The notes: generated from the sequence alone by a model not told the origin. A stretch of 64,000 nt of DNA from Candidatus Binatia bacterium (GCA_963666515.2 OY762897.2:864001-928000); one strand, 5' to 3'. Counted from the first letter of the stretch, positions 12,212 through 46,965 are shown. Translations and numbers: made by a program.

Positions 12212-13708
12212 GTGGCCGATACAGGATCCCTCGGTTTCACCGGTTCCGGCAGGCACATCGTTGACGAAGACGAGATCAAGCTCACCAGCGTGGGCGTGGA
12301 CATCGGCTCGTCCACGTCCCACCTAGTGTTCTCGCGCCTGGAACTGAGTCAGGAAGGCACCCGCTACGTCGTCAAGAAGCGCACCGTGCTGAGCGAATCG
12401 GAGATTCTGCTCACGCCGTACACCGACGACCTGACCATCGACACGGAGCGTCTGGGCCGGTTCATCAACCAGCAGTACGAGCACGCGCAGCTCAAGCGGG
12501 AGGACGTCGACACCGGCGCGCTGATCCTCACCGGCGTGGCGGTGCGGCGGCGCAACTCCCGCGCCATCGCCGAGCTGTTCGCCGAGGAGGCGGGCCGGTT
12601 CGTGTCGGTCACCGCGGGCGACGGGTTGGAGACCACCATGGCGGCCCACGGCTCCGGCGCGGTGGCGCGCTCCGGCCGGGAGGACGCGGTGGTGCTGAAC
12701 ATCGACGTGGGCGGCGGCACCAGCAAGATCGCGGTGTGCGCCGGCGGCAGGGTACGCGAGGTCACGGCCATCGACGTGGGCGCCCGGCTGCTGGCCATGG
12801 ACGGCGGCAACGCGGTGGTGCGGGTGGAAGAGGCCGGGCGGCGCCACGGCGGCAAGGTGGGCGTCGAGCTGGAGCTGGGCCAGCTCATGAACGAGGACAC
12901 CCTGCAGGCCATCGCGTCGGAGATGGCGGACCGCCTGTTCGAGGTGGTCAACCAGCAGGATCTCACCGAGGATACCCGTGAGTTGCTGCGCCTTCCGCCG
13001 TTGTCGTACCGGGGCAAGGTCGACGCCGTCACCTTTTCGGGCGGGGTCTCCGAGTTCATCTACGGCCATGCCGACAACGGCTACGGCGACATGGGGGCGG
13101 TCCTGGGCCGGGAGATCCGCCGGCGCGTGGAAGGCATGGGGGTCCCCATCCTGGAGCCCTCGGCCCGCATCCGCGCCACCGTCATCGGCGCGTCGCAGTA
13201 CACCATCCAGGTGAGCGGCAGCACCATCTTCATCTCGCCGCCCGACGCCGTTCCGGTCAGGAACGTGCCGGTGGTGAGCGTCGATTTCCAGTGGGACGAC
13301 GACATTGACCCCGCCAAGGTCATCGGCGCCATCGACAACGCGCTCCGGCGCCTGGATCTGCAAGCCGGCCGTCAGCCGGTGGCGCTGGCGTTCCACTGGC
13401 AGGGGTCGGCCACCTTCGCCCGCCTGCAGGCCTTCTGCGGCGCAGTGGCGGAGGGCCTTAAGCAGGTGCTGGACAAGGGCCACCCGCTCATCCTGGTGAA
13501 CGACGGCGACATCGGCGGCATCCTGGGGCTTCACTTCAAGGAAGAGATGAAGCTCGACAAGCCCATCATCTCGGTGGACGGCATCGTGCTGCAGGAGTTC
13601 GACTACATCGACGTCGGCGCCCTGATCCCGTCATCGGGCGCCGTGCCCGTGGTCATCAAATCGCTCGTTTTCCCAAGCGCGGAGCAGAACGCGGCCATCC
13701 GGCAGTAG
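12212..13708 (+). CDS. eutA: EutA-like ASKHA ATPase (ethanolamine ammonia-lyase reactivase family)
   Basis: [42 protein letters not shown] and C-terminal [10 protein letters not shown] are EutA-family motifs. Confidence 0.85.
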
Positions 13709-13739: not shown

Positions 13740-15110
<1,371 letters not shown>

Positions 15111-15375
15111 AGCCGAAATTCCCTCGCCAGCCGTCGCGCCTCAGGCTCGGCGCAATCTCTCTCCGTTTCAGCAGGACTTGCAGCAGAAGACGTAGTTGTC
15201 GAAAGAACCCGTGATTTTGTCAATCATGATGACATTATACGGGGATCTTTTGGCGAAACCGCCAAGGCATGAGTACTCAGGCTTTGAAATTGTCCTTTTT
15301 GCATGGTTCTTAGCCATATGGCCTTCAACAAATCGCATCTTGGAGTTATTTCGATATCGTGTTATTTTGATGGTT

Positions 15376-16218
15376 ATGAGCCATCAAAGAACCCCGCGTC
15401 TGAAACCGCTGCTGGATACCGTCCCCCCCGGCTTCATGGTGGATACGCCGTGGCTCAAGGCCCAAGGCATCGACCCCAAGTCCATCCACGGCTACGTCGC
15501 CCGCGGGTGGCTTGAGCGCGTCGTCCGGGGGGTGTATCGCCGCCCCCTGCCGGAAGGCGCACAAGGCGCCTGGGGGGAGTCCTGGGAAATTCCGCTTCTC
15601 TCGCTCCAACGGCTCATGAGGTACGCCGTGCATCTGGGTGGGGAGAGCGCCCTCGACGTGGTCGGCTACACGCATTACTTGAACCTCGGAGGAAAGCCCC
15701 GTGTCCGGTTCTACGGGGAGGCGCCGTCTTGGCTGAGGCGGCTGCCCATGCGGACCCAGATCGTCGTGCGCCGGCGGACGCTCTTCGGCGAGGATCCGCT
15801 CGGCATCGACGACGTCGGTTTAGAGGCCGGAGTGGGAGGATCCGCAGTCGGCGTGTGGCGCTGGCCCCTCAAGGCATCTTCTCCCGAACGAGCTATCTTC
15901 GAGGCCCTTGACGAGTTGCCGCGGGACGCGAGCTTCGAGAACCTGGACAAGGTCTTCGAGGGACTGGCATTGCTGCGGCCCAAGAGGCTCATGGCGCTGT
16001 TGACGGCCTGCCGGAGCGTGAAGGTGCGCAGGCTGTTCTTTGTCTTCGCGGACAGGCACGGGCACGCATGGCGCAAGCATCTGGACACTTCGAGGATCGA
16101 CCTCGGGTCGGGACCGCGGGCCCTCGTGAAGGGCGGCAGGCTCCACCCGGCCTACCGCATCTACGTGCCCCGGGCGTTCGTGCCCGAGAAGCCTTCAGTG
16201 GCGGCCGGCGATGCTTGA
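15376..16218 (+). CDS. Type IV TA antitoxin AbiEi
   Basis: N-terminal wHTH (Y..RGWLE..RGVY), SSPERA.FE.L and C.SVKV.RLF motifs; overlaps the AbiEii start. Confidence 0.88.
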   Translation: MSHQRTPRLKPLLDTVPPGFMVDTPWLKAQGIDPKSIHGYVARGWLERVVRGVYRRPLPEGAQGAWGESWEIPLLSLQRLMRYAVHLGGESALDVVGYTHYLNLGGKPRVRFYGEAPSWLRRLPMRTQIVVRRRTLFGEDPLGIDDVGLEAGVGGSAVGVWRWPLKASSPERAIFEALDELPRDASFENLDKVFEGLALLRPKRLMALLTACRSVKVRRLFFVFADRHGHAWRKHLDTSRIDLGSGPRALVKGGRLHPAYRIYVPRAFVPEKPSVAAGDA

Positions 16219-17125
16219 CAGGTACGTAGCGCAGGTCGGCCTGCTGCTGAGCGCGTTGCCCGACATCGCGAGGGAGACCGTGTTCGCGCTCAAGGGCGGC
16301 ACCGCGATCAACCTGTTCTACAGGGACATGCCGAGGCTGTCGGTGGATATCGACCTGACCTACCTGCCGGTGGCGGACCGCCGGTCGTCGCTTGAGGAAA
16401 TCGACGGCGCGCTCGACCGCATCGTCACGGCGGTCAACGCCCGCAGCCCGCGGCTCAGGGCGCGCCGTATCGCGGGCCGCGGGGACAGCGACACGCGCAT
16501 CATGGTGAGCGACGGCCGGGTGCGGATAAAGATCGAGACTTCCCCGGTGCTGCGAGGGGCGGTGCATCCGGCGAGGCGGATGGCTGTGTCCGATAGGGTC
16601 ACGGAGCAGTTCGGCTTCGTCGAGACGAGCGTGCTGGCCTTCGAGGATCTGTACGGCGGGAAGCTCCATGCGGCGCTCGATTGTCAGCACCCGCGTGACT
16701 TCTTTGATGTGAAGCTCCTGTACGACAACGAAGGCGTGACGGACGACCTCTTCCGCACTTTCATGGTCTATGTGGCGAGCTCGAACCGTCCGATGCATGA
16801 GCTCCTGGCTCCCTCTGCGCCCCCCGAAGAGGACCTGTATTATGAAGAATTCGTCGGGATGACCCGCGAGGCGGTATCCAGGGATGATCTGGCCGGCACG
16901 CGCCGCCGTCTTCACGCCGACATCGGATCGCGGTTGAAAGGAGACATCGCGGCGTTCCTGCTCTCCCTCCACGATGCGGAGCCCGACTTCGGCCTGATCG
17001 GTTTGCCCGAGGCCGCGGATATGCCGGCTGTTCGCTGGAAGTTGGTAAACTTGGAGAAGCTCAAGCGCGAAAATCCCGACAAGCACGCGGTTGAGCGCGA
17101 GGCGCTCGAAAGCCTTTTCCGCTAA
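16211..17125 (+). CDS. Type IV TA toxin AbiEii/AbiGii nucleotidyltransferase
   Basis: FALKGGTAINLF.R.MPRLSVDIDL; GKL.AALD.QHPRD.FD. Confidence 0.92.
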   Translation: MLDRYVAQVGLLLSALPDIARETVFALKGGTAINLFYRDMPRLSVDIDLTYLPVADRRSSLEEIDGALDRIVTAVNARSPRLRARRIAGRGDSDTRIMVSDGRVRIKIETSPVLRGAVHPARRMAVSDRVTEQFGFVETSVLAFEDLYGGKLHAALDCQHPRDFFDVKLLYDNEGVTDDLFRTFMVYVASSNRPMHELLAPSAPPEEDLYYEEFVGMTREAVSRDDLAGTRRRLHADIGSRLKGDIAAFLLSLHDAEPDFGLIGLPEAADMPAVRWKLVNLEKLKRENPDKHAVEREALESLFR

Positions 17126-23280: not shown

Positions 23281-24683
23281 CGTGAGAAACCGCAAGCATA
23301 CGGCATCCACCTACAGCAGTCCGTTTAGTGCTTTGAAGGCTTGCTCGAAACGATCAAGTTCCTGTTCACTCAGTCGAGCCACCAACGCCCCGACTTCGCT
23401 GGCGAAATAGCGAGCTGGTGCGTAGTGGTTGAATTTGGCGTTTTTCGGAAGCGGATTGTCTTTGATGTGGCGCTCAAGACGGCGGAGGATTCGAGGAGGG
23501 TTCTTGGGCAAATCTGCCAAAGCAACTGATGAACCGAAGGTCCCGTTCACCAACTCCAGGTAGAAGTTGGGCTCGAACATGTCCTCAATATCGGCTTCGC
23601 TTTTGCCCACATAGTCTGCATATGTCAGGACCTTTTGCTTCTTGAGTAGTTTTCTCTTGTAGAGGTTCTCAAGGGTCTGTTTATCCTTTTTCTGGAAGTC
23701 GAGGAGAACGGCCATCTTAAGACGTGTCTGGGCGCCAATCAGCGCGACGAAGGTTGAGACCTTGTCGGAGCCACCGACTGGAGTGATAGTCCAATCGCTA
23801 CTCAGGCCCACCCTGCCTTTTTCCTGGAGAATGGTCGAGATTGTTTGGATGTAAAGTAGGTCGGATACGCCTTCAACAACGAGGCAGTTTGGGCCGACGA
23901 ACAGTGTCTGGTAGATCTCGTAGCCGAGAGCACCTTGGAGGGGGAAGAGGCTATCCGGTGTTGCATCGAGGACTTCCGTTATGACCTTCGTGCCTTCTTC
24001 GTCTTCCGCGAGATCGTTAGCATCTGGTTCGAGGCTCCTGTCCTGGACGATGCGGACGCGATCAAAATGTGTCGGATCGACCATGAACGGTGAATGGGTT
24101 GTGTAGATGAGTTGGTGATACGGTTTCAGTTCCACCTCAAAGTAACGAAGGAGGTCTTCCTGGGCTTTCGCGTGAAGAGAGAGGCCAGGTTCATCTAGAA
24201 GGAGGATAAGGTTCTCCTTCTTTGCTCGGAGTTGAGAATACCATGCAAGAAAGGAAAAGAACCAGATGAAACCGCGAGAGCGAGTGCCCAACGCTGTGCT
24301 TACCATGTGCTTCGTGTCATGTACACGGCCCCAGATATTCATTCCGTTGGTCATGCCGGGCGGGTCCTGGGATTGACCCGGACGGATATCAAACTTCAAT
24401 CTGAGGTGGCGGTTTTGGGACCAGTATTTTAGCACCTTCTGCGTAAGCTGATTTTCGGCAGCTTCGAGCTTGGCTAGTAAGCTTTCAGTTCTGTCTGGTG
24501 CGAGTATCTGTTGCAAGTTCAACCCAGCAAGAGCAATTAGCCCGAGGAGTGGGTGATCCCGCTCTTCAAGCTCATTGCGATCGACACGGCTCACGAGAGC
24601 GTCAAGATTATCGTGGCCCTTCATCAAGTAGTACTCGTCGAAGTATACCCGATTGTTGCAAAAACCACGGCTGAATTTGAGAG

Positions 24684-26061
24684 TCAGGCGCGGGGCGTGA
24701 GGACTGCGAGAGCATGACGCATCTCAGCTTCGAGTTTGGGATTGGTGTTCATCGACAGGATGAGTTTGCCGGCGGGGCGAATGATACGCCCGGCCCGTTG
24801 AATGAGGGTACGGCGAAGGGTTCCGATTTCGCGAAAGCACCAAAGGGCGGAGCGTTTTGCCGTGGTCGAACGCTCACGCGGGTGGATTCGCATCTGGAGT
24901 TCGCGGGTGAGGTTGTGAGCGAGGATGCTGGCGAACATGTACAACTGGTTCCCCACGCGGGTTTTGACGGGCACCGTAGCCCATTTGGCAGTGGGTCTTC
25001 AACTCGGCGAAGATGCCCTCTTGGGAGCCCCGGCCTTCATGGAAGAGAGCGACCTTGCGTGGGCGGATTCTCTTGTTGGTAACGATGACCTTGAACTCGT
25101 ACCCATAGGAGACGGGCTTGAAGAGGTCGAGTTGGATTTCGTCCTTGTTCTGGTGTCGGACGGGTTTTCTGATGAAGACGAAGCGATAGCGGGTGTTCCA
25201 GGACTTGGGCTTCCAGCGGCTCTCGAAGTAGCCGAGTCCATCCCCCATGGGCCACCATTGTCGTCTGCCCTGGACCATCCCCTTCAGTTCGGCCAAGCGC
25301 TCGAAGGGCACCGAGACGGTGAAGGTGACGCCCAGGGAGTGAAGTCGATCGATGATGTCCCGGTTGAAGAAGGCGCTGTCCATGCGCACCTCGATCCTGG
25401 CCCGGGGCAGGCTCGCGCGCACGATGCACACACAGCGCTCGATGAAGGCGTCGGCGCCCTTGGAGTCGTGGACGTTTCCCGGCCGATGGTGCACGTCGAG
25501 CACCTGGTCGGTCTGGGCGACGGTGCAAAACAGGGGGTAGTAGCTGCGCGCCCCTTTCTTCTTCTTGTTGAACCCCACCGCGGTGCCCTCGGCGTGACGC
25601 CCGGTGCTCAGGACCGAGCCGTCGAAGTCCAGGGTGATGGTCGCGAACCCTTCGGCCACCAGGCGCTCGATGACCACCGTTCTCGACTCGGCGCGGACGT
25701 TGTCGACGCTGCGCACGTCGGCACTCTTCAGCGAGCGGCTCATGGTAGACACCCCCGGCAAGCGTTTCAGCCCAAGCAACCCCTTGACCAGTTCATCATC
25801 CCGGTAGTACGCCAAGTCTTGCAACCGTCGGTGTCCGATGATCAGATGCACCACCAGCAGGAGCAGCACCACGTGGTGACCGTAGATCGGGTTGGCTTTC
25901 AGGTGGCGGAAGCACCGCCGCAGCCGCTCCTTGAGGCCCAGGTGGGAAAAGAAGTGCTGAAAGAGGATGAGCCCCGAATACGATGTCAGTTTCTGCGGCT
26001 CGAATCGAACATCCATGCCCAGCGTGGCTTTACCTCGAACCGCGGTTCTGCTAAGTTTCAT
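24684..26061 (-). pseudogene. IS1380-family DDE transposase with a +1 frameshift near 24975
   Basis: TLDFDGS, YYPL, RPGN, VRMDSAF, RG.QE.IF.ELK. An extra base in tac-g-gtg-ccc shifts GY-VPVKTRVGNQ into the 24684-24974 frame. Confidence 0.85.
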
Positions 26062-26094
26062 TTCGTGGTCTCCGTTTCATCGGGTATTGGGATT

Positions 26095-27357
26095 CACTGC
26101 TGTCCCACAAACTTTAGGTACCCGGGAGGGGGAGTTGGGGTGGCGGGGGAGCCGGGGGCGGCGGGTAGAGGAGGGAAAGGAGCGGGCGGCGGTCGAAGAG
26201 GTTGAGTTGGAGGAGGCGGAGGATGTGGTAGAGGGAGAGGGAGATACGATTGAGGAACTTGATGTAAGCGATGAGGAGATAGACACAGAGGGCGATCCAG
26301 AGTTGAGTGAGGACGGCGTTGCGGGAGGTTCCGAGGAAGCTTTTGACTTTGAGGTGCTGCTTGATCCACTTGAAGAAGAGTTCGACTTGCCAGCGGTCTT
26401 TGTAGATGTCGGCGATGGTTTTGGGGGCCAGGGAGAAGTGGTTGGTGAGGAAGTCGTAGAACTGGCCGGTGGCGGCATCGACATAGCCGACGCGGCGGAG
26501 GGGGCGGGGATACTTGGAATGGCTGGAAGTGAGTTCGATGGTTTGATCGCAGATCACGCCCTGTTCGGGGTGGACGGGCCGGCTTTCACAGACGCGGTAG
26601 CAGGCGCCTCTTTTGAGGCGGGTGACCAGGAAAATCCCTTGTGAATACAGGTGGTTGAGCCAACTGAAGTCCACGTAGCCCCGGTCCGCCACCAGGATGC
26701 TGCCCTGGGGCAGGGTGAGTGCCCGCGCTCCTTTGATGTCGGAGGTCTTGCCGTCGGTGAGGTTGACGAAGGTGGGCAGATAACCGTCATGGTCCAATCC
26801 CAGGTGCACCTTCACCGCTCCCTTGGTGGTACGGAACTTTGCCCACGGAAACAGCGACAGACACAAGTCGATGGTGCTCCCATCCAACGAGTAAAGCTTG
26901 TTCTTGAAGCGAAACTTGTGCCCCGGCGCCTGACTCCGACAGCGGCCCAGCAACTTGCCGAACACCGCCTCGTATAACGTATACGGCTGCTTCTCGTTCA
27001 CCCGCGCCAACGACGATCGGCTCACCCGCTTCACCCCAAGGTGATACTGCTTGTCCGCTTGCACGTCCAGATTCCCCACGATGTCCCGCAGACTGCTCCG
27101 CCCCGCCAATTGCCCCAGCACCATCGCCACGAACTGCCCCCACCGCGTCATCTTCCGCAGCCGCCGCCCCTCGTGGTGCTCCCGCGCCTCCCTCTCAAAT
27201 TCATGTCTCGGCACCAGCTTGAGTATTTGCCCCAATACGGTATGATTATACGCCATGGACCTGAACCTCCCTGTTGATGGGGTTTTTGCTTGTTCCATCT
27301 TAACACAGGCGAGCTCTTCAGGTCCTCCCCCGTTCGTATTTTTGTGGGACAGCAGTG
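26095..27357 (-). mobile_element. IS4-family insertion sequence (1263 bp) nested in the IS1380
   Basis: Perfect 17-bp IRs CACTGCTGTCCCACAAA; 9-bp TSD ATTGGGATT at 26086-26094 and 27358-27366. Confidence 0.95.
26114..27256 (-). CDS. IS4-family transposase (DUF4372 + DDE)
   Basis: LDGSTIDLC, ADRGY and the YREK-type motif Y..RWQVELFFKWIKQHL; ORF intact. Confidence 0.95.
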   Translation of the reverse strand: MAYNHTVLGQILKLVPRHEFEREAREHHEGRRLRKMTRWGQFVAMVLGQLAGRSSLRDIVGNLDVQADKQYHLGVKRVSRSSLARVNEKQPYTLYEAVFGKLLGRCRSQAPGHKFRFKNKLYSLDGSTIDLCLSLFPWAKFRTTKGAVKVHLGLDHDGYLPTFVNLTDGKTSDIKGARALTLPQGSILVADRGYVDFSWLNHLYSQGIFLVTRLKRGACYRVCESRPVHPEQGVICDQTIELTSSHSKYPRPLRRVGYVDAATGQFYDFLTNHFSLAPKTIADIYKDRWQVELFFKWIKQHLKVKSFLGTSRNAVLTQLWIALCVYLLIAYIKFLNRISLSLYHILRLLQLNLFDRRPLLSLLYPPPPAPPPPQLPLPGT

Positions 27358-29657: not shown

Positions 29658-32147
29658 TTACCGGTACAGGCGCGGGTCGTCCACGGACGACCTCGGCTTG
29701 CGGATCTGGGGCGTGAGCGACGGCAGGCCCGGACGGGCGCGCAGCATGAAGTCCACCGGAATGAAGTCCTTCAGCAACGGAATCGGCATGCGCACGCCGG
29801 CGTAGGGGCTGGCGGCGTCGTTGCCCACCACCAGTTCGTCCGCCAGGAACGACTTCGGCGCGTCCGCGCGCACGCTGACTCCCGAGGCGGTGACGCTGCC
29901 GCGCACGGTGGGCAGCCCGAGGGCCTTGTGGGGATCGGTTTCCCTGGCGCTCAGAAGCTGGTGGTCGAGAATCGGCGAGCGCGGGTCCGCGTTCCGGCCG
30001 GTGCGCCGGATGAACCGGAGGTCCGCGTCATTGGAGGTGCGGTCCCTTGCCTCGACCTGCATGAGACGGGACGGGAACTCACTGAGCCCGTCGCCGCGGG
30101 TCCGCTCCCGCTTGTCCGCGTCCAGCGCCGCAAGCTCGTAGTGTTTCTCCCGCAGCAGGGTTTCCAGGTTCTCGATGCGACGCTCGGCCACCGGGTAGGT
30201 GCGGGTCTGAACGCCCCACGGGGTGTCGTAGTGCAACATCACCGCGTCGCGGCCCAGGACGTTGAGCCCCTTTTCGGCCAGCTCCACGTTGTCGGACCTG
30301 CCGTCGAACAGCACGGCCTTGAGGCCGAGCCCGCGAGGCCCGTGGAGTTGAGGGTTCTCGGCGAGAAACTGCTTGCTGAGCCTGAGGCCCCGGTTCTCCG
30401 CAGCCGCCAGCCGCGCCAGCAGGCCCTTGGCCTGCTTTCCCGCCGGCGTCTCCGGGTAGTGCTGGATGAGGGCGGCGTACAGGGTCCGTTGCTGCGCCTT
30501 GGAGCCGCTCTTCTCCGCGGCCTTCAGGAGCGTGCGGCCGGCCTTTTCCTCCAGTTCCCGCATTTCGTCCGCCGACAGCTTTCCCGACAGCCGGTAGTAG
30601 TACAGGGCCTTGTGGAGGTGGCCCTTGCCCTCGTAGGCTTTCCCCAGCACTTGGTAGACGTCGCCGGTTTCCTCCGAGTCCGACCGGAAACGGACGTGCC
30701 GGGCGGCGGCGTCCATGACCGTCTGATCCGACACCGGATTGCCGCTGAGCATCTCCAGCAGGTTGCTGCTCACCATCAGGACGTTGGCGGTGCCGAGGGT
30801 GGCGGCTCCGGCAACGCCGTGGGTGATCAACGGCGCGGCGCCGATCAATACGTTCTTTTCCAGGAAATTCCGCCCGAGCAACACGAAGCGTACCTGCTCC
30901 AGGCGATGGCGCGCGCGGGTGCGGTCCAGGACTCCCAGGAGGTTGTACTCCGGGCTGTCCAGCAGGATCCGGGCGCGCTTCTGCTGGCGCTCGGTTGAAC
31001 CGGTGCGGGCGATCTCACCGAGGGTGCGCTTGGCCTCTCCGTGCCGGCCGTTCAGTTCCTGGGCCGCGGCCCGCACGTCCTTGGCCAGGGTGCCCAGGGG
31101 CTCGCCGGCGTAACGCCGCTCCATGTCGCGGGCCCGCTCCGCGGCTCCGGCCGCGTCTCCCCCGGCCAGCGCGTAGAGCAGCGCCCGGACGTCCTTCGAC
31201 TCTTGCGGACCGGGTTCGTAGAGGCCGTCGGCGTCCGCTACCGAGAGTTGCCGGCGCCGCGTTTCCTCGCGCGCCGTCCTGGCGGCGTCGATCTCCCGCA
31301 ATTGCTCGTCAACCTCCCGCGCCTGCGGATCGACGGCGGCTGCCAGTTGCGCATGGAACTCCGCCTCCTCGAGCCGGCCCTCGTCCAGCGCCTGCCCGGC
31401 CTTCTCCACGTGCCGGTGAATCCAGATGCCCTTTCGATCCGCCTCCAGCGCCGTCACCTTCCCGGCTACTTCGCCGCTTCTCGGGTCGTTCGGGAAACGC
31501 TCGACGAAGCGTTTGTAGAACGCCAGGGCCTTGCGTTCGGCCTCCGGCATGCGCGGCGCGCGCGTCCGTTGCACTTCCGTGAAGGCGGTTTCCACCGCCG
31601 CGGTGACGTAGGAACCCGACGCCAGCGTTATCAGGTCCACGGAGGCGAGCAGCCGGTTCAGCAGTGCGTTCCATCGCCCGATGCGGTGCTCGGCCACCAG
31701 CGCCTCGGCCTGTTCCAGCTCGTCTTGGCGCAGGCGGGCGCGGATCAGCCGTTGCGCGGCGTCCGTCGGGGCCTTGGCCAGGGCCTCTTGCTGTGCGTCG
31801 CGGTACGTTTCGCGGTCGGCCACGTTGCCGTGGTGCAGTTCCCGTACGTGGTGGGTCAATCCGCTCGCGTTGCCGCCGCCGGCGACTCTCTCGTCGTCCT
31901 TGTCCTCGAAGTAGCGCACGTGTCCACGCAGCCGCTCCGTGCGATGGGTCAGGGCGTCGACGATGGCCACGCGCACGCGTTGCTCCAGCTCGTCGGGGAA
32001 GTAGCGCTCGGCCGTGGCCGGCGCCTCGAAGGGATCGAAGTCGCGCAGGGGGTCCAGCATCCGCTCGTTCGCCGTCCGCACCGACTGCGCCAGCGCCGAA
32101 GCCGGCAGCACCAGGAGCAGGCAGAGCAGCAACGCACCGGTCTTCAT
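29658..32147 (-). CDS. Large secreted hypothetical protein (829 aa) with TPR-like helices
   Basis: Signal peptide MKTGALLLCLLLVLPASALA; TPR-type motifs FVERFPND and LIQHYPET; ATGA overlap with the upstream gene. Confidence 0.78.
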   Translation of the reverse strand: MKTGALLLCLLLVLPASALAQSVRTANERMLDPLRDFDPFEAPATAERYFPDELEQRVRVAIVDALTHRTERLRGHVRYFEDKDDERVAGGGNASGLTHHVRELHHGNVADRETYRDAQQEALAKAPTDAAQRLIRARLRQDELEQAEALVAEHRIGRWNALLNRLLASVDLITLASGSYVTAAVETAFTEVQRTRAPRMPEAERKALAFYKRFVERFPNDPRSGEVAGKVTALEADRKGIWIHRHVEKAGQALDEGRLEEAEFHAQLAAAVDPQAREVDEQLREIDAARTAREETRRRQLSVADADGLYEPGPQESKDVRALLYALAGGDAAGAAERARDMERRYAGEPLGTLAKDVRAAAQELNGRHGEAKRTLGEIARTGSTERQQKRARILLDSPEYNLLGVLDRTRARHRLEQVRFVLLGRNFLEKNVLIGAAPLITHGVAGAATLGTANVLMVSSNLLEMLSGNPVSDQTVMDAAARHVRFRSDSEETGDVYQVLGKAYEGKGHLHKALYYYRLSGKLSADEMRELEEKAGRTLLKAAEKSGSKAQQRTLYAALIQHYPETPAGKQAKGLLARLAAAENRGLRLSKQFLAENPQLHGPRGLGLKAVLFDGRSDNVELAEKGLNVLGRDAVMLHYDTPWGVQTRTYPVAERRIENLETLLREKHYELAALDADKRERTRGDGLSEFPSRLMQVEARDRTSNDADLRFIRRTGRNADPRSPILDHQLLSARETDPHKALGLPTVRGSVTASGVSVRADAPKSFLADELVVGNDAASPYAGVRMPIPLLKDFIPVDFMLRARPGLPSLTPQIRKPRSSVDDPRLYR

Positions 32148-33067
32148 CGGTTGAGCCTCCTCGTTCGTTCCATGAGCCCCTTCAGGCCTTCGAGCCTGGC
32201 GCCGGCCTCGAGCTTCTCGATCGCGCCGTCCTGCTGAGCCACTTCGGCGTAGAGCTTCATGGCGGACCGGGCGAACCCGTCGAAGGTCTCGATGTCGAAG
32301 TCGAGGCCCTGCGGGTCGTTCCGAAGAGCGTACTCCCTGGCCAAGCTCACGTAGTAGTCGCCGAAGTCCAGCAGGTAGCGGTGGTAGTTCCTGCTGCGCA
32401 CGTGTCGCGACAGGAGCTGGCTGTAGCCGAGCGCCACCAGTTCGTTGCCCTGGTTCAGCCGATGGCGGTTCAGCTCCACGAACGCCACCTTGGCGCGGTC
32501 GATGGCCTCCGCTTCCACCCGCGCCAGGTATTCCAGCGAAGTTCCCTCGTGTTCCCGGACCAACGCGTTCCAGGCCAGGACCACGTCGTCCAGGACTTTC
32601 ATGTACTCGAACGGGTCCTCTTTGGGAAGGGCCGTGCGGGAAATTCGTCGAAACGTCTCCAGCGCTTCGACCCGGCGTTGCGCCGGGTCCGCCAGCTCGC
32701 CGCCGCCGCGCGTCACGTTGCGGTAGTGGCGGATGGCCCGGCCGTAGTCCCGGAGACGCTCGTAGGCGGCGGCCCGGGTGAACTCCACGATGTCGTTGTA
32801 GCCGCTTCCGTGCCTGCGCTGGTAGTCCTCCAGGCGCAGCAGCGTGGCCTTCAGGATGTTGGTGCCGGTCACGTCCTTGGGGACGTCGAACCGGTAGACG
32901 TCCTCGCGCGAGAGCCTTTGGAACTCGTTGATGATTTCCAGCAGGTTCGCCGGTTGCACGTAGCGCGGGTCGGGCGCTTCCGTGCGCGTGCACCCGGCGG
33001 CGCCGAGAAGCAGCAGCGCCCACAGCCAGATCGCGGCTACCGTTTTGTGGTGATGAGCGAATAGCAC
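32144..33067 (-). CDS. Putative TPR-like lipoprotein
   Basis: Hydrophobic stretch and lipobox-like LLLLGAAG-C; helical repeats (AYERLRDYGRAIRHY). GTG start uncertain. Confidence 0.72.
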   Translation of the reverse strand: MLFAHHHKTVAAIWLWALLLLGAAGCTRTEAPDPRYVQPANLLEIINEFQRLSREDVYRFDVPKDVTGTNILKATLLRLEDYQRRHGSGYNDIVEFTRAAAYERLRDYGRAIRHYRNVTRGGGELADPAQRRVEALETFRRISRTALPKEDPFEYMKVLDDVVLAWNALVREHEGTSLEYLARVEAEAIDRAKVAFVELNRHRLNQGNELVALGYSQLLSRHVRSRNYHRYLLDFGDYYVSLAREYALRNDPQGLDFDIETFDGFARSAMKLYAEVAQQDGAIEKLEAGARLEGLKGLMERTRRLNR

Positions 33068-41163: not shown

Positions 41164-42198
41164 CTACGCGGCGGCTTCCGCGGAGAGAACCCGGCAACTG
41201 AAGGATTCCACCGCCGCCTCCGGCTTGGGAAAGACGATCGTGAAGCTCGCCGATTCGTTGGCGGGAATCCGGTAGGCGCTCTGGGGCTTGAGGCTCTGCA
41301 GCAGCTCGATCTCCCGAAACGTCATGTCCTGAATGATCCTGGCCGAGATCGCGTTCCCTACGAACGTGACCTGCCGGCCCACCTCCTTGCCTTCCGCATC
41401 GAAGAGGCGAGCCTCGATACGGACGCCGTGGACGCTCCGGTCGTTGCGGTTCACCAGCTTGCCGGAAACGACGAACACCTCCGTCTGGTTCATCACCGGC
41501 TGCACTCCCGACGCCAGCGACTCGAACACCAGGGTCTTCTTGAAGTGCCGGTTGTCGAACAGGGCGCCGCCGTACCACGGGATTCGTTGCAGCAGTGAAT
41601 CCAGCGGTTGCGGGTTGACCTGGTAGATCAGCGTCACCAGAACGAAGGCGGACACCGCCAGGGCCACGACGCTCACCACCGGTACGAAGGAACCCCTGGA
41701 CGAGGTCCGCACGGGCGGCGGCGGCTCGGCCTCCTGCCTGGGCGGGATCAGGAAATCATCGTCAATCTCGAAGTCGGGCTGCGAAAGCCGGGCGTCGTCA
41801 TTGTCTTGGGCCGTTGCCGTCTCGCCCGCTTCATGGGTTGCCGGCTCGGCTTCGGCGTCCGGCAACTTCAGAACCCCCTGGCCCGTTTCGAGGTCCGGCG
41901 GCGCCGGCTCCTCCTCCAGGGCCGCGCTCTCGAGGGTATCCTCACGGTCTTGATCGGGCGGGTCCTCGCTCACAACGAAGGCGTCACCGGCATCCGGGTC
42001 GCCGCCGGCCGCACTCGTCTCGGGTGCCGGGTCGCCGGCGTCGGGGTTCAGGTCGGGGTCCGCGTCCTGCAACTGCAGGCGCACCTCGAAGGTGAAAACG
42101 TGCTTGCAGCGCGAGCAACGGAAAGTGGGGTTGGGCGCGTCGAAAACGCTGCCGTCCACCTTGTAGGTCGTGGAACAGCTTGGACAGCGGATGATCAT
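41164..42198 (-). CDS. Zinc-ribbon (MJ0042-type) / DUF3426 membrane protein
   Basis: N-terminal CPSC...RCSRC, acidic linker, a single TM helix and a beta-rich C-terminal domain. Confidence 0.85.
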   Translation of the reverse strand: MIIRCPSCSTTYKVDGSVFDAPNPTFRCSRCKHVFTFEVRLQLQDADPDLNPDAGDPAPETSAAGGDPDAGDAFVVSEDPPDQDREDTLESAALEEEPAPPDLETGQGVLKLPDAEAEPATHEAGETATAQDNDDARLSQPDFEIDDDFLIPPRQEAEPPPPVRTSSRGSFVPVVSVVALAVSAFVLVTLIYQVNPQPLDSLLQRIPWYGGALFDNRHFKKTLVFESLASGVQPVMNQTEVFVVSGKLVNRNDRSVHGVRIEARLFDAEGKEVGRQVTFVGNAISARIIQDMTFREIELLQSLKPQSAYRIPANESASFTIVFPKPEAAVESFSCRVLSAEAAA

Positions 42199-42211
42199 CG
42201 TCGTAGAAGTT

Positions 42212-43210
42212 CTATATCGAGAAGTTCCGGTCGCCGACGTCGAGGTTTTCCTGCCATGCGGTCCAGAGGTTCGTCGTCATGTACCGGCTGCCGAAGTCGG
42301 GGAACACCGTGACCACGGTGCCGTGAGATAACCGGCGGGCGACCTGCAATGCCGCGTGCATGGCGGCGCCCGAAGACTGGCCCACCAGCAGCCCTTCTTC
42401 CCGGCCCAGGCGGTAGACCATGTCGTAGCCGTCCTCGGTGGACACGGGGATTTTAAGGTCCAGCTCCTCTTCGTGATAGATCCCGGGGACGATGGAGCTG
42501 GCCATGTGCTTCAGCCCCTCCAGCCCGTGCAGCGCCGCATCCGGCTCCGCGGCGATGACCCGGATCCCGGGGTTCCGTTCCTTCAGGTAGCGCCCGGTGC
42601 CCATGACGGTGCCGCCGGTGCCGATCCCGGCCACGAAGTGGGTGACGCTCCCCTCGGTTTGCCGATAGATTTCCGGGCCCGTGGTCTCGTAGTGGGCCTG
42701 GCTGTTCATGGGGTTGAAGTACTGGTCGGGCTTGAAATAGGCTTCCGGGTCTTCGGCGACGATCTCGCGGCAGAGTCGGATGGCCCCGTCGGAGCCTTCC
42801 ATCGGATCGCTGTACACGGTCTCCGCGCCGAAGAACCGGATGATGCCCTTGCGTTCCTCGCTGACGTTGGCCGGCAGCACTAGGCGCACCGGGTAGCCCA
42901 GCGCCGCGCCGATCATGGCGACGGCGATGCCGGTGTTCCCCGAGGTCGAATCGATGATGGTCCGGCCCGGTCGAAGCCGGCCCGTGCGGATCGCCTCCCG
43001 GATCATCCTCAGCGCCGGCCGGTCCTTCACCGAGCCGCCGGGATTGAAGCCTTCGAGCTTGGCCAGGACCCTTACGGCCGGTGAAAGGCCACGGGTGACG
43101 TTGCTGATCTCCAGCAGCGGCGTATTGCCGATAAGCTCGGTAACGGCTTCGGCTTTCCCGGGAGCGCGCGCCGCGGCCGGCGGCGCCGGTTTCCTCAATG
43201 CGGCGAGCAT
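42212..43210 (-). CDS. PLP-dependent cysteine synthase family protein (CysM/CysK-like)
   Basis: KLE..NPGGSVKDR, TSGNTG, GTGGT, GQSSGA. Confidence 0.92.
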   Translation of the reverse strand: MLAALRKPAPPAAARAPGKAEAVTELIGNTPLLEISNVTRGLSPAVRVLAKLEGFNPGGSVKDRPALRMIREAIRTGRLRPGRTIIDSTSGNTGIAVAMIGAALGYPVRLVLPANVSEERKGIIRFFGAETVYSDPMEGSDGAIRLCREIVAEDPEAYFKPDQYFNPMNSQAHYETTGPEIYRQTEGSVTHFVAGIGTGGTVMGTGRYLKERNPGIRVIAAEPDAALHGLEGLKHMASSIVPGIYHEEELDLKIPVSTEDGYDMVYRLGREEGLLVGQSSGAAMHAALQVARRLSHGTVVTVFPDFGSRYMTTNLWTAWQENLDVGDRNFSI

Positions 43211-43218
43211 GGAACCGG

Positions 43219-43497
43219 CTACGCACCTCCGGCGATGGCCGGCACGATGGAGATGCTGTCGCCGTCCTTCAACGCGGTGTCCACGTTCTTGAGAAAGCGG
43301 ATGTCGTCCCCGTTCACGTAGACGTTCACGAACCGCCGGACCTTGCCGGCGTCGTCCATGACGCGCTCCTTGATGCCGGGGTGGTTCTGCTCCAGGTCCT
43401 CGAACATGGCCAGGATGGTGTCGCCGCTGGCATCGACCTCATCCGAGCCCTGGGTGAATTTTCGCAACGGTGTAGGGACGCGTACTCGAACACTCAT
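43219..43497 (-). CDS. Ubiquitin-like sulfur carrier protein (MoaD/ThiS/CysO family)
   Basis: V.VPTPLR, FVNVYVNG.DIRF and C-terminal PAIAGG-A. Confidence 0.93.
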   Translation of the reverse strand: MSVRVRVPTPLRKFTQGSDEVDASGDTILAMFEDLEQNHPGIKERVMDDAGKVRRFVNVYVNGDDIRFLKNVDTALKDGDSISIVPAIAGGA

Positions 43498-43606
43498 GAG
43501 AGACCTCCGTTCCGTATCAGGATAGACCCTGGACACGGGCTTTTCAACTTTTCGATGCGGGAGAGGCCTCGCGGCGGCCCTGCTACCCGCTCCGCCGGCG
43601 CCCCGG

Positions 43607-44872
43607 TCAGACTGCCTTTGCCTTCTCCTGCGGTTCCTGCGACAGCTCGCCGTACAGCGCGTCGAACGTGCCCAGGGCCGCGTCGATGCTGTAGGGCCGG
43701 TCGATGATGTGGGCCACGGTCTCCACGGTCTTGTAGCCGTTACCGGTGATGGAGATGACGATGGACTCGTCCCGCGGAATGCGGCCCTGCTCGATGAGCT
43801 TTTTCGTCACCGCCACCTCCGTGCCTCCCGCCGGCTCGGTGAAGATGCCCTCGGTGGACGCCAGCAGCCTGATGCCGTCGAGAATCTCGTCGTCCGTGAC
43901 GTTCTCGCCCCAGCCGCCGGACTCCTTGACGGTCTGGATCACGTAGTACCCGTCGGCCGGGTTGCCGATGGCGATGGAGGTGGCGATGGTGTCGGGCTTC
44001 ACCGGATCCACCACGTCGGTGCCCTTCTTCAGGGCGTCGATGATGGGCGAGCAGCCCGCGGCCTGGGCCGAGTAGATGGCGCAGGGCTCGTCCGGGTCCA
44101 CCAGCCCCACCTTCCGAAGCTCCTTGAACGCCTTGCCCAGCTTGGGAAGGATGGTCCCGCCCGCGGAGCCCACGACGATGTGGCGCGGCAGCTTCCAGCC
44201 GAGCTGTTCGGCCACCTCGAAGGCGTGGGTCTTGGCGCCCTCGGAGTAGTAGGGCCTGAGGTTCACGTTGACGAAGGCCCACTGGTACTTGTCGCCGATC
44301 TCGCTGCACAGGCGGTTCACGTCGTCGTAGGTCCCCTTGATGGCGACGGTGCGCGGGCCGTAGATGGCCGAGCCGACGATCTTCGCCTCCTCCAGCCCCT
44401 CGGGGATGAAGACGTAGCAGTTGAGCCCGGCGCTGGCGGCGTGGGCCGAGACCGAGTTGGCCAGATTGCCGGTGGAGGCGCACGACACGGTCTCGTAGCC
44501 GAACTCGACGGCCTTGGAGATGGCCACCGACACCACCCGGTCCTTGTAGGAGAAGGTCGGGTGGTTCACCGAGTCGTCCTTGAGGTACAGTTCGTCCACG
44601 CCCAGCGCCTCGCCCAGCCGGTGCGCCCGGATGAGCGGCGTGAACCCCGAGTAGAGGCCCACCCGGGGCTCACCCTCGATGGGCAGCATCTCGCGGTAGC
44701 GCCACAGGTTGCGCGCCCGGGAGGCGATTTTCTCCCGGCTGACGCTCTTGCGGATGCCGTCGTAGTCGTACTCCACCTCGAGCGGGCCGAAGCAGTCCTC
44801 GCACACGTGGAGGGGCGCGATGGGATACTCCCGCAGGCACTCCCGGCATTTCAGTCCCTGGACGAAGCTCAT
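43607..44872 (-). CDS. Threonine-synthase-like PLP enzyme (second paralog; candidate sulfur-carrier-dependent homocysteine synthase)
   Basis: N-terminal CxxC/CxxC, NHPTFSYKDR, CASTGNLA and ITGNG.K motifs; context between moeB and a sulfur carrier, downstream of SAM-I. Confidence 0.88.
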   Translation of the reverse strand: MSFVQGLKCRECLREYPIAPLHVCEDCFGPLEVEYDYDGIRKSVSREKIASRARNLWRYREMLPIEGEPRVGLYSGFTPLIRAHRLGEALGVDELYLKDDSVNHPTFSYKDRVVSVAISKAVEFGYETVSCASTGNLANSVSAHAASAGLNCYVFIPEGLEEAKIVGSAIYGPRTVAIKGTYDDVNRLCSEIGDKYQWAFVNVNLRPYYSEGAKTHAFEVAEQLGWKLPRHIVVGSAGGTILPKLGKAFKELRKVGLVDPDEPCAIYSAQAAGCSPIIDALKKGTDVVDPVKPDTIATSIAIGNPADGYYVIQTVKESGGWGENVTDDEILDGIRLLASTEGIFTEPAGGTEVAVTKKLIEQGRIPRDESIVISITGNGYKTVETVAHIIDRPYSIDAALGTFDALYGELSQEPQEKAKAV

Positions 44873-45657
44873 GCGTGACTCCTTTGGGAAGCCGGCGCCC
44901 CGACGAATGCGCCGCAGGCCTTGCAGCGGGGGTTGGGCGGCACCGGCACGTTGCGTATTTCCATGGTCTTGGCGTCGTAGGTCAGCAGGCGGTTCACCAG
45001 CAGGTGCTCCTCCAGGCCGACGATGTACTTGATGGCCTCGGTGGCCTGGATGGAGCCGATGGTTCCCGCCACCGCGCCCAGGATGCCCGCCTGCTGGCAG
45101 CCCAGCACCTCGCCCGGCGCCGGCGGCTCCTCGAACAGGCAGCGGTAGCAGGCGCTGTCGGGCGGCGTCACCGTCATGGTCTGGCCCTGCAGGCGGACGA
45201 TCCCCGCGTGGGAGAAGGGCTTGCCCAGGGAGACGGCCACGTCGTTAACCAGGAACTTGGTGTCGAAGTTGTCGCTGCCGTCGATGATGAAGTCGTAGGG
45301 CTCCATCAGCTCTGCGGCGTTGTCCCCGGTCAGGCGCACGTCGTGGACCTCCACGTCCACCTCGGCGTTGAGTTCGCGCAGCCGGGACCTGGCCGATTCC
45401 ACCTTGTGGCGTCCCCGGTCCGCGGTGGTGTGGAGGATCTGCCGCTGCAGGTTGGAAAGGTCCACCGTGTCGCCGTCCACGATGCCGAGCCGTCCGAGGC
45501 CGGCGGCGGCCAGATAGAACGCCGCGGGGCTGCCCAGGCCGCCGGCGCCCACCACCAGCACGCTCGCCTGCCGCAGGCGGATCTGCCCGCCGCCCCCGAT
45601 GTCGGGGACCATGATCTGGCGGCTGTACCGCTCGACTTGCTCAGGCGTAAGACGCAT
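44869..45657 (-). CDS. moeB: ThiF/MoeB/HesA family adenylyltransferase (no rhodanese domain)
   Basis: RYSRQI, GAGGLGSP, SNLQRQILH, DGSDNF.TK, CYRCLF and C-terminal CxxC. Confidence 0.92.
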   Translation of the reverse strand: MRLTPEQVERYSRQIMVPDIGGGGQIRLRQASVLVVGAGGLGSPAAFYLAAAGLGRLGIVDGDTVDLSNLQRQILHTTADRGRHKVESARSRLRELNAEVDVEVHDVRLTGDNAAELMEPYDFIIDGSDNFDTKFLVNDVAVSLGKPFSHAGIVRLQGQTMTVTPPDSACYRCLFEEPPAPGEVLGCQQAGILGAVAGTIGSIQATEAIKYIVGLEEHLLVNRLLTYDAKTMEIRNVPVPPNPRCKACGAFVGAPASQRSHA

Positions 45658-45697
45658 CGCCGTGTGCTCCGGGCGAAGATTCAACGACACTCAAACG

Positions 45698-45731
45698 AAA
45701 AAAAACCTCTTCCAAGATGAGAAGAGGTTTT
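45698..45731 (-). terminator. Intrinsic terminator (riboswitch expression platform)
   Basis: Minus strand AAAACCTCTTC-TCATCTTG-GAAGAGGTTTT continuing into an 8-T run, immediately after the aptamer. Confidence 0.85.
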
Positions 45732-45736
45732 CTCCT

Positions 45737-45842
45737 CACCTTATCTGTCCCTTGCGGGCCGGAATTAGCACCTGTGTCCCCTCCGGGAACACGGTTGCTG
45801 TGGCTTCGACGGGCCTGTCCCTCCACCACTCTGGATAAGGTG
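45737..45842 (-). ncRNA. SAM-I (S-box) riboswitch
   Basis: Minus strand CACCTTATCCAGAGTGGTGGAGGGACAGGCCCGTCGAAGCCACAGCAACC...GGTGCTAATTCC...CAGATAAGGTG matches the S-box consensus, with a 9-bp P1 (CACCTTATC/GATAAGGTG). Confidence 0.95.
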
Positions 45843-45945
45843 TCCAGTTCTTTGCAAGGATTCTACACGGTTTTTCCCGATTGCGCAATTTCCCTTGTGC
45901 TTCGCATGGAGGGGACCTGAAGGCCGCTCGCTGCTTCTCTCCAGT

Positions 45946-46965
45946 TTATTTGTCGGAGGCCGACAGACTATCCTTGAGGGCTTGAAACCGGGATTCGTCG
46001 AGCCCTGTCGCCGTTTCGATCACATCCCAGGCCACTCCCGCCCTCAACATACCTTCAACCGCCTTCAACGTGCCCTGCCGTTCCCCCTCTTCCCGACCTC
46101 CCCGCCAACCTTCCTGACGACCTTCCTGACGACCTTCCTGGCGGCCTTCCTGACGGCCTTCCTGGCGGCCTTCCTGTCTGCCTTCTTGCAGGAGTTGTTG
46201 GGCATACGACATGATCTCACCTCCTTGCTCTCGACCATGGCGCCGTAGCGCTTCACCGAACGCCTCCACCACCTCGCGCTCCTGGGTCGCCATCACATAC
46301 CTGATGAAGACCCTTACATAGTTCATCCCGCCTGCCATCGGCAACGACGATGCCAGCCGCGCCGCCTGCTCCAGAGCCTCCCGCAAATGGCGGTCGAACG
46401 CCGCCATCATCAACAACTGCGCCACGCGACCCCTCTCCCCGCCTCCCACTCCCCCGGGCTCCAGCCCCGTCGCGTCCAGCAGCAGGTGCTCGAACCGCGG
46501 CACCCACGGCCACCGCCGCAACCCCGCCGGGAACAGGTCCGCAAACTCCCTCGAATGCCGCCACCCGTCACGCCCCTGGTAGAATACCAACGGCACGATG
46601 GGACGTAACCCCGGCTCTCCCGTCGAAGTCTCTCCCTCCCGAAGACTCGCGTCCCATATCCGGCAGCAGTACTTCAGCAGCCGAAACCGCATCCACCCAT
46701 CCGGCGTCGATTGATGCTCCAGCAGCACGTACAGCCACACCCGCTCCCCACTCCCCGCGTGCTCCACCTCGTACAACAGGTCCGATTCGCTCTCCCGCAG
46801 GGTGTCGTCCAGGAACGTCCCCTCCAGCAGCGTCAGCGTCTCCCAGTCCAGTTCCTCCCGTAGCGCCGGCGGCAGAGCCGTCTGCATCAGACTCCCGGCC
46901 TCCGCAGCATCCGAGAACACCGCGCGAAACAGCTTGTCGTGGGGATTGCGGACTTCGTCGGCCAT
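45946..46965 (-). CDS. Rpn/YhgA-like recombination-promoting nuclease (PD-(D/E)xK)
   Basis: NPHDKLFR, ESDLLYEV, YVLLEHQS..D.WM..RLL.Y, P.VFY.G...W; C-terminal QEGR repeats. Confidence 0.93.
   Translation of the reverse strand: MADEVRNPHDKLFRAVFSDAAEAGSLMQTALPPALREELDWETLTLLEGTFLDDTLRESESDLLYEVEHAGSGERVWLYVLLEHQSTPDGWMRFRLLKYCCRIWDASLREGETSTGEPGLRPIVPLVFYQGRDGWRHSREFADLFPAGLRRWPWVPRFEHLLLDATGLEPGGVGGGERGRVAQLLMMAAFDRHLREALEQAARLASSLPMAGGMNYVRVFIRYVMATQEREVVEAFGEALRRHGREQGGEIMSYAQQLLQEGRQEGRQEGRQEGRQEGRQEGRQEGWRGGREEGERQGTLKAVEGMLRAGVAWDVIETATGLDESRFQALKDSLSASDK
46109..46188 (-). repeat. 12-bp tandem repeat encoding (QEGR)n in the Rpn C-terminus
   Basis: Six CCTTCCTGnnnn units plus a partial unit on the + strand. 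Confidence 0.9.

Follow-up and report, generated by a model that had tools for sequence, protein, structure and literature searches.

A SAM-I riboswitch-controlled operon of a Candidatus Binatia bacterium with a MetM-like enzyme, a CysO/MetO-like sulfur carrier and a CysM-type enzyme, and its probable role in thiocarboxylate-based sulfur amino-acid synthesis

The window analysed here is a stretch of 64,000 nucleotides (nt) from a Candidatus Binatia bacterium (GCA_963666515.2 OY762897.2:864001-928000), and its minus strand carries an operon of four genes, in the order moeB, thrC-like, carrier and cysM, behind an S-adenosylmethionine (SAM) riboswitch of the SAM-I class (Table 1). Judged from homology and genomic context, this locus is on balance likely to be a SAM-I "off"-switched operon for sulfur amino-acid synthesis by way of a protein thiocarboxylate; observed directly are the riboswitch and its terminator, what each gene encodes, its place in the trees, the conserved neighbourhood and the enzymes missing from the genome, all reported below. 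The four genes that a preliminary description of this DNA had listed are all present, on the minus strand, with the ATGA overlap between moeB and the thrC-like gene (4 nt, 44869-44872) and the 8-nt gap between carrier and cysM (43211-43218) that it had claimed. For two of the genes an internal start was preferred: the moeB open reading frame (ORF) spans 44869-45690, but its GTG at 45690 falls inside the terminator tail, which makes the ATG at 45657, preceded by GGAG, the likelier start; the carrier ORF spans 43219-43536, and its likelier start is the ATG at 43497, since residue 1 of the resulting protein then aligns with that of Mycobacterium tuberculosis CysO.

Table 1. Features of the operon and its surroundings, with positions counted from the first letter of the window (aa, amino acids)
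Feature	Position	Strand	Evidence or remark
Possible promoter, TTGCGC (45888-45883), 17 nt, TAGAAT (45865-45860)	45860..45888	-	by eye, tentative
SAM-I riboswitch aptamer (RF00162)	45738..45841	-	82.6 bits, model positions 1-108
Intrinsic terminator of the expression platform, 16-bp hairpin + U8	45698..45735	-	minimum-energy fold
E1-like adenylyltransferase (moeB), MoeB/ThiF family, RYSRQ N-terminal motif	44869..45657	-	Pfam ThiF 276 bits
MetM-like ThrC paralog (thrC-like), 421 aa, proposed carrier-thiocarboxylate-dependent homocysteine synthase	43607..44872	-	TIGR00260 match, MetM clade
CysO/MetO-like sulfur carrier, 92 aa, C-terminus ...AIAGG-A	43219..43497	-	ThiS 62.8 bits
CysM-type cysteine synthase (cysM), 332 aa	42212..43210	-	TIGR01136 345.6 bits, cut-off 344.15
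Zinc-ribbon/DUF3426 membrane protein	41164..42198	-	13 nt downstream of cysM
Divergent long ThrC-family paralog, likely housekeeping threonine synthase (context only)	13740..15110	+	TIGR00260 223 bits

The SAM-I aptamer and the terminator behind it had both been proposed in the preliminary description, and both were recovered here. The RF00162 model matches over its full length, with a score well above the gathering score of 44.4 (E 5.8e-18), and a scan of the whole genome with this model (4.67 Mb, 98.35% complete) gave a single SAM-I match, the one ahead of moeB. In the minimum-energy fold of 45650-45845 (z -3.26 vs. shuffles), the aptamer P1 is followed by the 16-bp terminator hairpin (-18.7 kcal/mol on its own), whose U8 corresponds to 45705-45698. 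The operon is thus almost certainly riboswitch-controlled, and the fold suggests that the element is most likely a transcription-terminating "off" switch ahead of the four genes. A candidate anti-terminator drawn by eye (12 bp, 45742-45731 pairing with 45725-45714) was not recovered as a minimum-energy fold, and the terminator still won when the P1 5' strand was removed. The possible promoter has a -35 element matching the consensus at only 3/6 positions, and neither this promoter nor the terminator appeared in the output of a simple promoter/terminator consensus scan. Directly upstream of the promoter region lies an Rpn/YhgA-like putative transposase gene (window 45946-46965, minus strand; C-terminal QEGR repeats), which looks inserted, since the ornithine-cyclodeaminase-like gene located ~0.6 kb from moeB in same-genus loci is displaced to 47304 in the window.

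The thrC-like gene encodes a protein with an N-terminal CxxC...CxxC zinc ribbon, and is one of six ThrC-family genes in the genome, being 30-37.5% identical to the other five. Actinobacterial homologs were sought in species genomes, using as query an alignment whose first sequence was a Micromonosporaceae homolog, and 80 loci were obtained. Proteins of these metM loci are 48-57% identical to the operon protein, 47 of the 80 have a carrier gene immediately downstream, and a SAM-I riboswitch lies directly upstream in 10 of the 11 loci tested; none of the 80 shows a gene resembling CysM or E1 within 6 kb of metM. Five actinobacterial genomes contained exactly two ThrC-family genes each, one at the metM locus and one encoding a short canonical ThrC. 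We then built a 73-row tree from the genome's six paralogs, four Binatia orthologs, seven actinobacterial metM-locus proteins, five canonical actinobacterial ThrC and 51 other full-length sequences picked from 150 representatives. The operon protein falls in a 34-row clade (100 in the Shimodaira-Hasegawa-like approximate likelihood ratio test) together with all seven metM-locus proteins, while the genome's five other paralogs and the five canonical actinobacterial ThrC fall outside. The phylogeny that the preliminary description had proposed for telling its two ThrC paralogs apart therefore puts the operon paralog inside the MetM clade and the 13740 paralog outside. The Streptomyces MetM/MetO pathway, which that description had invoked, is a real one according to PMC13759103 (GapMind, 2026) and PMC12172450, and the S. 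albulus metM-metO genes show there the same arrangement as the actinobacterial loci, with SAM-I and a downstream carrier (PMC13759103 Table 2 and S1D; PMC12172450). In sequence collections, at least 8000 homologs of the ThrC-like protein were found at E ≤ 1e-30; every source-given functional name among the 120 listed is "threonine synthase", and cluster names for ten representative homologs comprise only "threonine synthase" and one Micromonosporaceae label.

Searches of the genome for other homocysteine routes found no enzyme of PF01053 (MetB/C/Y/Z; best match 37.9 bits, partial) and no MetX (best match 21.5 bits), and gave no match for MetA or for DUF39/HcyBio; MetH is present (1643 bits). 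Of the gaps that the preliminary description had thought worth looking for, those of metA, metX and PF01053 (metB/metY) are real, but cysE is present (240 bits). Of 40 relatives, 35 carry the operon's ThrC-like gene as an intact ortholog (at least 71% identity), the exceptions being G027 (split), G025 (five stops) and G028, G035 and G019, which are without it (G019 is 76% complete). PF01053 enzymes (E ≤ 1e-30) were detected in 0/25 genomes of the genus, yet are present in G025, G028 and G035 (3/3), which are the three near-complete relatives that have no intact copy of the ThrC-like gene. Given this complementary distribution, the operon fits as the homocysteine route of the genus. Taken with the MetM-clade membership, the only SAM-I riboswitch of the genome, the lack of any other searched-for homocysteine enzyme and the presence of MetH, this leaves a MetM/MetO-type route well supported, and we consider that the operon very probably directs homocysteine synthesis of this type.

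What had been described as a separate canonical thrC at 13740 is indeed a ThrC-family gene and probably the housekeeping threonine synthase, but it is not canonical: it is a divergent long form, one of the six paralogs, and long-branched in the 73-row tree. Genes of this type occur in 32/41 relatives, and five of the nine genomes without one carry a short canonical ThrC (307-323 bits). In substance, this agrees with the earlier argument that the operon paralog is free for another role.

The organization of the operon is conserved across the taxonomic order. The order moeB-thrC-like-carrier-cysM was found in all 11 same-genus loci and in 12 of the 14 loci of two other families (the remaining two meet a contig edge just past the carrier), and SAM-I precedes the operon in 11 of the 13 other-family loci searched. 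At the level of the phylum, a ThrC-like ortholog was detected in 27 of 151 sampled genomes. In 14 loci taken from these 27 genomes, all from other classes of the phylum, the neighbourhood contains the carrier (14 loci), an E1 (13), CysM (11) and a JAMM peptidase (8); gene order varies, with cysM often abutting or overlapping the JAMM gene, and SAM-I was found in 7 of the 11 loci searched. The joint cluster is thus widespread across the phylum. No CysE match was obtained in seven of these 14 genomes, and in five of the seven (G063, G105, G047, G175 and G142, 98-100% complete) no CysK/M-family gene was found besides the cluster CysM, which makes O-acetylserine a very unlikely substrate for it in those five. 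The ThiS family has a single match in all in G182, and a single match over the cut-off in G063. In four loci (L177, L178, L185 and L186, of G063, G105, G175 and G142), extra genes lie between the ThrC-like gene and the carrier (1.3-1.6 kb gaps), and also between the carrier and cysM.

Downstream of cysM, the zinc-ribbon/DUF3426 gene (Table 1) adjoins cysM within the genus and stands 0.03 to 2.8 kb off in other families; it is possibly co-transcribed with cysM, though we leave it out of the pathway. Short Logan contigs from metatranscriptome library X14 (156-250 nt, 2-7 differing letters) partly cover the ThrC-like gene, the carrier and cysM; one of them spans the carrier/cysM junction (43099-43308) and another the cysM/zinc-ribbon junction (42090-42255). 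These were not taken as evidence of expression, since such libraries can hold DNA and contigs do not show transcripts, and stretches left uncovered in X14 carry no information.

The carrier itself resembles the sulfur carriers of actinobacteria: its score is 95.2 bits against chain C of 3DWG, M. tuberculosis CysO, and 83.8 bits against the carrier of 4N6E. It ends in GG followed by one Ala, and a single variable residue after GG is found in 16 of 18 relatives; this extra residue implies that the carrier is trimmed. The other ThiS-family genes of the genome are only those adjoining MoaE and ThiG, leaving the operon carrier as the sole one of CysO/MetO type. In actinobacteria, CysO is encoded in mec-cysO-cysM clusters, and a second carrier, MetO, follows metM; a carrier tree joins these two apart from the Binatia carriers, with weak support (83/84), in line with which the genome's single carrier appears co-orthologous to both.

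The operon E1 consists of a ThiF domain only (262-273 aa), no rhodanese domain being found in it, and matches positions 116-369 of 387 in PRK08762, i.e., the model without its N-terminal rhodanese part. A second E1, with an N-terminal rhodanese domain, is encoded at C1:1602253-1603425. A stand-alone JAMM gene lies at C1:741674-742156 (Prok-JAB, 73.6 bits) and is the sole match in the genome for each of the cluster-encoded JAMM proteins of six related loci. Another E1-related locus, an island of lower third-position GC at C1:3040709-3045179, contains, besides a patatin-like phospholipase gene, those of an E1-JAB fusion, of a prokaryotic E2 and of a protein without Pfam match, and resembles a defence cassette of the CBASS (cyclic oligonucleotide-based anti-phage signalling system) type.

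For the CysM-type protein, the cysM model (357 bits) scores above the cysK model (295 bits), and the protein carries a conserved C-terminal tail, ...VG(N/D)(L/V/M)xFSI. In a tree of 24 rows, including 8 of 18 Binatia loci plus the window protein and with rows resembling cystathionine beta-synthase (CBS) cut to 345 residues, the Binatia operon CysM form a clade sister to four cysO-linked actinobacterial CysM (support 97/90; 39-42% identity), with CysK (the genome's own included) and CBS apart. Where the cysO-linked enzymes carry an Arg in the alignment, a Lys is conserved in the CysM-type enzyme. That Arg of M. tuberculosis CysM is presumably a marker of O-phosphoserine use; since this was the sole marker considered, and the equivalent position is basic here too, a residue-level call between O-phosphoserine and O-acetylserine was dropped. 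We also predicted the complex of CysM with the carrier, which reached a median score of 0.49 against 0.00 for the best control, although memory of the solved complex 3DWG, which it resembles, may account for this; at least 86% of contacts agreed between runs, with a predicted local distance difference test (pLDDT) of at least 87 for the partner. Our mark for such predictions was reached by 116/157 solved complexes and 2/215 mismatched pairs, and at scores of 0.60 or below by 18/157 solved complexes and by both mismatches that passed.

These observations lead us to the following scheme, whose chemistry is read throughout from characterized homologs. At low SAM, transcription would read through into the operon. 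The carrier would be made as a ...GG-Ala form and trimmed to GG by the JAMM peptidase encoded elsewhere (C1:741674-742156), after which the rhodanese-less MoeB-like E1 would adenylate its C-terminal Gly, and a sulfur donor (sulfide or persulfide) would convert the adenylated carrier to the thiocarboxylate (carrier-COSH). The MetM-like ThrC paralog would then combine O-phosphohomoserine with carrier-COSH into a carrier-homocysteine adduct, from which the JAMM peptidase would free homocysteine, to be turned into methionine by MetH. For cysteine, the adjoining CysM-type enzyme would probably combine O-phosphoserine with this carrier-COSH too, following the CysM/CysO precedent of M. tuberculosis. 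That one carrier also serves CysM seems to us a little better than an even bet. The dual one-carrier pathway that the preliminary description had put forward is therefore well supported on the homocysteine side (clade, synteny and genome gaps), and on the cysteine side comparative genomics only speaks for it, in a genome that has both CysE and CysK.

Several observations weigh against this scheme. With no JAMM gene in the operon and no rhodanese domain in its E1, the carrier's sulfur donor is not evident from the operon, and a search of the genome found no homoserine kinase over the family cut-off (GHMP ThrB, 33.9 bits; APH-type, 119.5 bits vs. a cut-off of 255.9). The carrier tree is weak (83/84) and based on 92 columns, and the ThrC tree does not include S. 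albulus MetM, for which synteny-defined Streptomyces orthologs (S. filamentosus and S. griseoincarnatus) were substituted. Moreover, the operon protein has the top TIGR00260 score of the genome's six paralogs (about 281-282 bits), and threonine synthase activity is reported for a cyanobacterial MetM homolog in the available part of PMC12172450, which makes a second activity of the operon enzyme possible. The same two points, and a search of the genome that found no short canonical ThrC, would suit a plain threonine synthase, possibly the main one of the cell, with carrier and E1 serving another thio-cofactor pathway. We regard this as highly improbable: the operon is controlled by SAM and not by threonine, the protein belongs to the MetM clade, the other homocysteine routes searched for were not found in the genome (nor PF01053 enzymes in any of the 25 genomes of the genus), the 13740-type ThrC is complementary to canonical ThrC among relatives, and MoaD and ThiS have their own genes elsewhere.

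The cysteine half calls for closer weighing, as the carrier might be needed for homocysteine only and the CysM-type enzyme be an ordinary cysteine synthase B, working on free sulfide or thiosulfate with O-acetylserine or O-phosphoserine; the shared regulation would then be explained by methionine synthesis depending on a common supply of reduced sulfur. With the E. coli-type cysM model (cut-off 394.2), the operon enzyme reaches 357 bits vs. 272-309 for the cysO-linked actinobacterial enzymes, its nearest solved relatives are plant O-acetylserine sulfhydrylases (247 bits, vs. 210 bits for M. tuberculosis CysM), and the genome encodes, besides CysE, a bona fide CysK (TIGR01139, 437 bits), so that this genome does not depend on the CysM-type enzyme for cysteine. 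E. coli-type CysM was left out of the CysM tree, which leaves room for an ordinary sulfide- or thiosulfate-using CysM, and the score of the CysM-carrier complex is weak and perhaps a memory of 3DWG. We nonetheless find this reading rather unlikely, because cysM sits 8 nt from the carrier in a neighbourhood kept phylum-wide despite reordering, often overlapping the JAMM gene, because the enzyme is sister to the cysO-linked actinobacterial CysM, and because in five CysE-less relatives it is the sole CysK/M-family gene and O-acetylserine is very unlikely to be its substrate there. Alternatively, the CysM-type enzyme could act upstream of the carrier, its cysteine (or a persulfide) supplying the sulfur for thiocarboxylation, as the lack of a rhodanese domain in the operon E1 might suggest, and as Iyer et al. 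(2006) read operon links between cysteine synthase and ubiquitin-like (Ubl) proteins, namely as a coupling to the sulfur donor cysteine (PMC1779556, available part). This appears improbable, since it requires a cysteine desulfurase, of which the operon has none, since CysM lies downstream of the carrier in the M. tuberculosis precedent (PMC12910592, as far as its available text goes), and since the CysM-JAMM adjacency of related loci fits the release of an amino-acid adduct.

Thiocarboxylate routes to these amino acids are known from other bacteria. Wolinella succinogenes reportedly makes methionine with HcyS, HcyF, HcyD and MetY, the latter said to be a PF01053-family O-acetylhomoserine sulfhydrylase, in work ascribed to Krishnamoorthy and Begley (2011; cited in PMC5764234). 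That system is reported to share with the Binatia operon a Ubl carrier whose extra C-terminal residue is removed by a JAMM peptidase, a dedicated E1 and homocysteine as product, and to differ in its PF01053 enzyme, which was not found in this genome. The M. tuberculosis pathway is likewise said to be treated in mechanistic detail by Burns (2005), O'Leary (2008) and Agren (2008). Its CysM, CysO, Mec and MoeZ form a cysteine pathway (EC 2.5.1.113; PMC12910592, in its available part; structures 3DWG and 3DKI), which the Binatia operon resembles in the similarity of its carrier to CysO and in a CysM that adjoins the carrier, is sister to cysO-linked CysM and has a C-terminal tail past the core fold. 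The tail, however, ends in FSI here vs. QLWA, the CysM enzymes share only 39-42% identity, mec is not adjacent, regulation is by SAM, and the carrier is proposed to be shared with a MetM-like enzyme.

In S. albulus, MetM, MetO, Mec and MoeZ turn O-phosphohomoserine into homocysteine (Hasebe et al., 2024, Appl Environ Microbiol 90:e0124724, via the available parts of PMC13759103 and PMC12172450), a system that is alike in its ThrC-like enzyme of the same clade, its downstream carrier of CysO/MetO type, its upstream SAM-I and, according to the same texts, a carrier that needs C-terminal trimming. Unlike in S. albulus, as described there, the E1 lies inside the operon and is without MoeZ's defining rhodanese domain, a JAMM gene is absent from the operon, and the lineage is not actinobacterial but Binatia-like, going by the names given to proteins of 79-81% identity; the CysM-type gene after the carrier also contrasts with the actinobacterial metM loci, with their 0/80 for CysM or E1 within 6 kb. 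Outside actinobacteria, operons of Ubl, E1, JAB and cysteine synthase (classes 4c-4e) were described by Iyer, Burroughs and Aravind (2006, PMC1779556, available part), and like the present one they place the gene of a ThiS/MoaD-like carrier close to those of an E1 and a cysteine synthase. Their E1s, in contrast, are rhodanese-fused, and "threonine synthase", "ThrC" and "methionine" have 0 occurrences in the available text of PMC1779556. We found no description of a joint MetM and CysM operon in the literature searched, where Hasebe et al. (2024) was covered via citing papers only, and these in part.

Some further genes in the window and genome merit mention. The 13740 ThrC paralog is preceded, 31 nt upstream, by a gene for a EutA-like ASKHA-fold protein (PF06277, 400 bits; window 12212-13708, plus strand), and in other families of the order the 13740-type ThrC adjoins a PF01053 enzyme instead; to see in the EutA-like protein the missing homoserine kinase is pure speculation. 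Directly after the paralog follows an AbiEi/AbiEii toxin-antitoxin pair (window 15196-17125, plus strand), and farther on lie genes for an AAA_21 ATPase and two DDE transposases (window 23311-27298, minus strand) and a 1121-aa ORF without Pfam match at E ≤ 1e-6 (window 29658-33023, minus strand). Elsewhere in the genome, a second pair of such genes consists of a CysK-like gene (TIGR01139, 356 bits) followed after 10 nt by a ThrC-like gene (C1:1175290-1177645); this pair has UbiD-family decarboxylase, amidohydrolase and arylmalonate-decarboxylase-like genes as neighbours, with no carrier nearby. The three further ThrC-like paralogs (loci L027, L028 and L029) stand in catabolic-looking surroundings.

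Both halves of the proposed pathway are already known, MetM/MetO from 2024 and CysM/CysO from 2005-2008. The present locus would differ in joining them through a single carrier, with an E1 of its own that has no rhodanese domain and under one SAM-I riboswitch, in a Binatia-like lineage. It is tempting to speculate, though we put this somewhat below even chances, that throughout this lineage and its phylum cysteine and homocysteine both receive their sulfur from one Ubl thiocarboxylate, with no other donor in several small genomes, that the SAM riboswitch in front of the module subjects cysteine supply to a signal derived from methionine, and that the actinobacterial CysO and MetO arose by a later duplication and split. 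With four genes plus one JAMM gene, the set is compact and suited to testing such carrier sharing in vitro. For annotation, these results imply that the "threonine synthase" label on this widespread ThrC-like protein is probably wrong, and that pathway tools without the MetM route would call the genomes of this group methionine auxotrophs. If the carrier does serve both pyridoxal phosphate (PLP) enzymes, organic sulfur assimilation in these bacteria would run through a protein thiocarboxylate and not through free sulfide, and cysteine synthesis would be placed, unusually, under the control of SAM.

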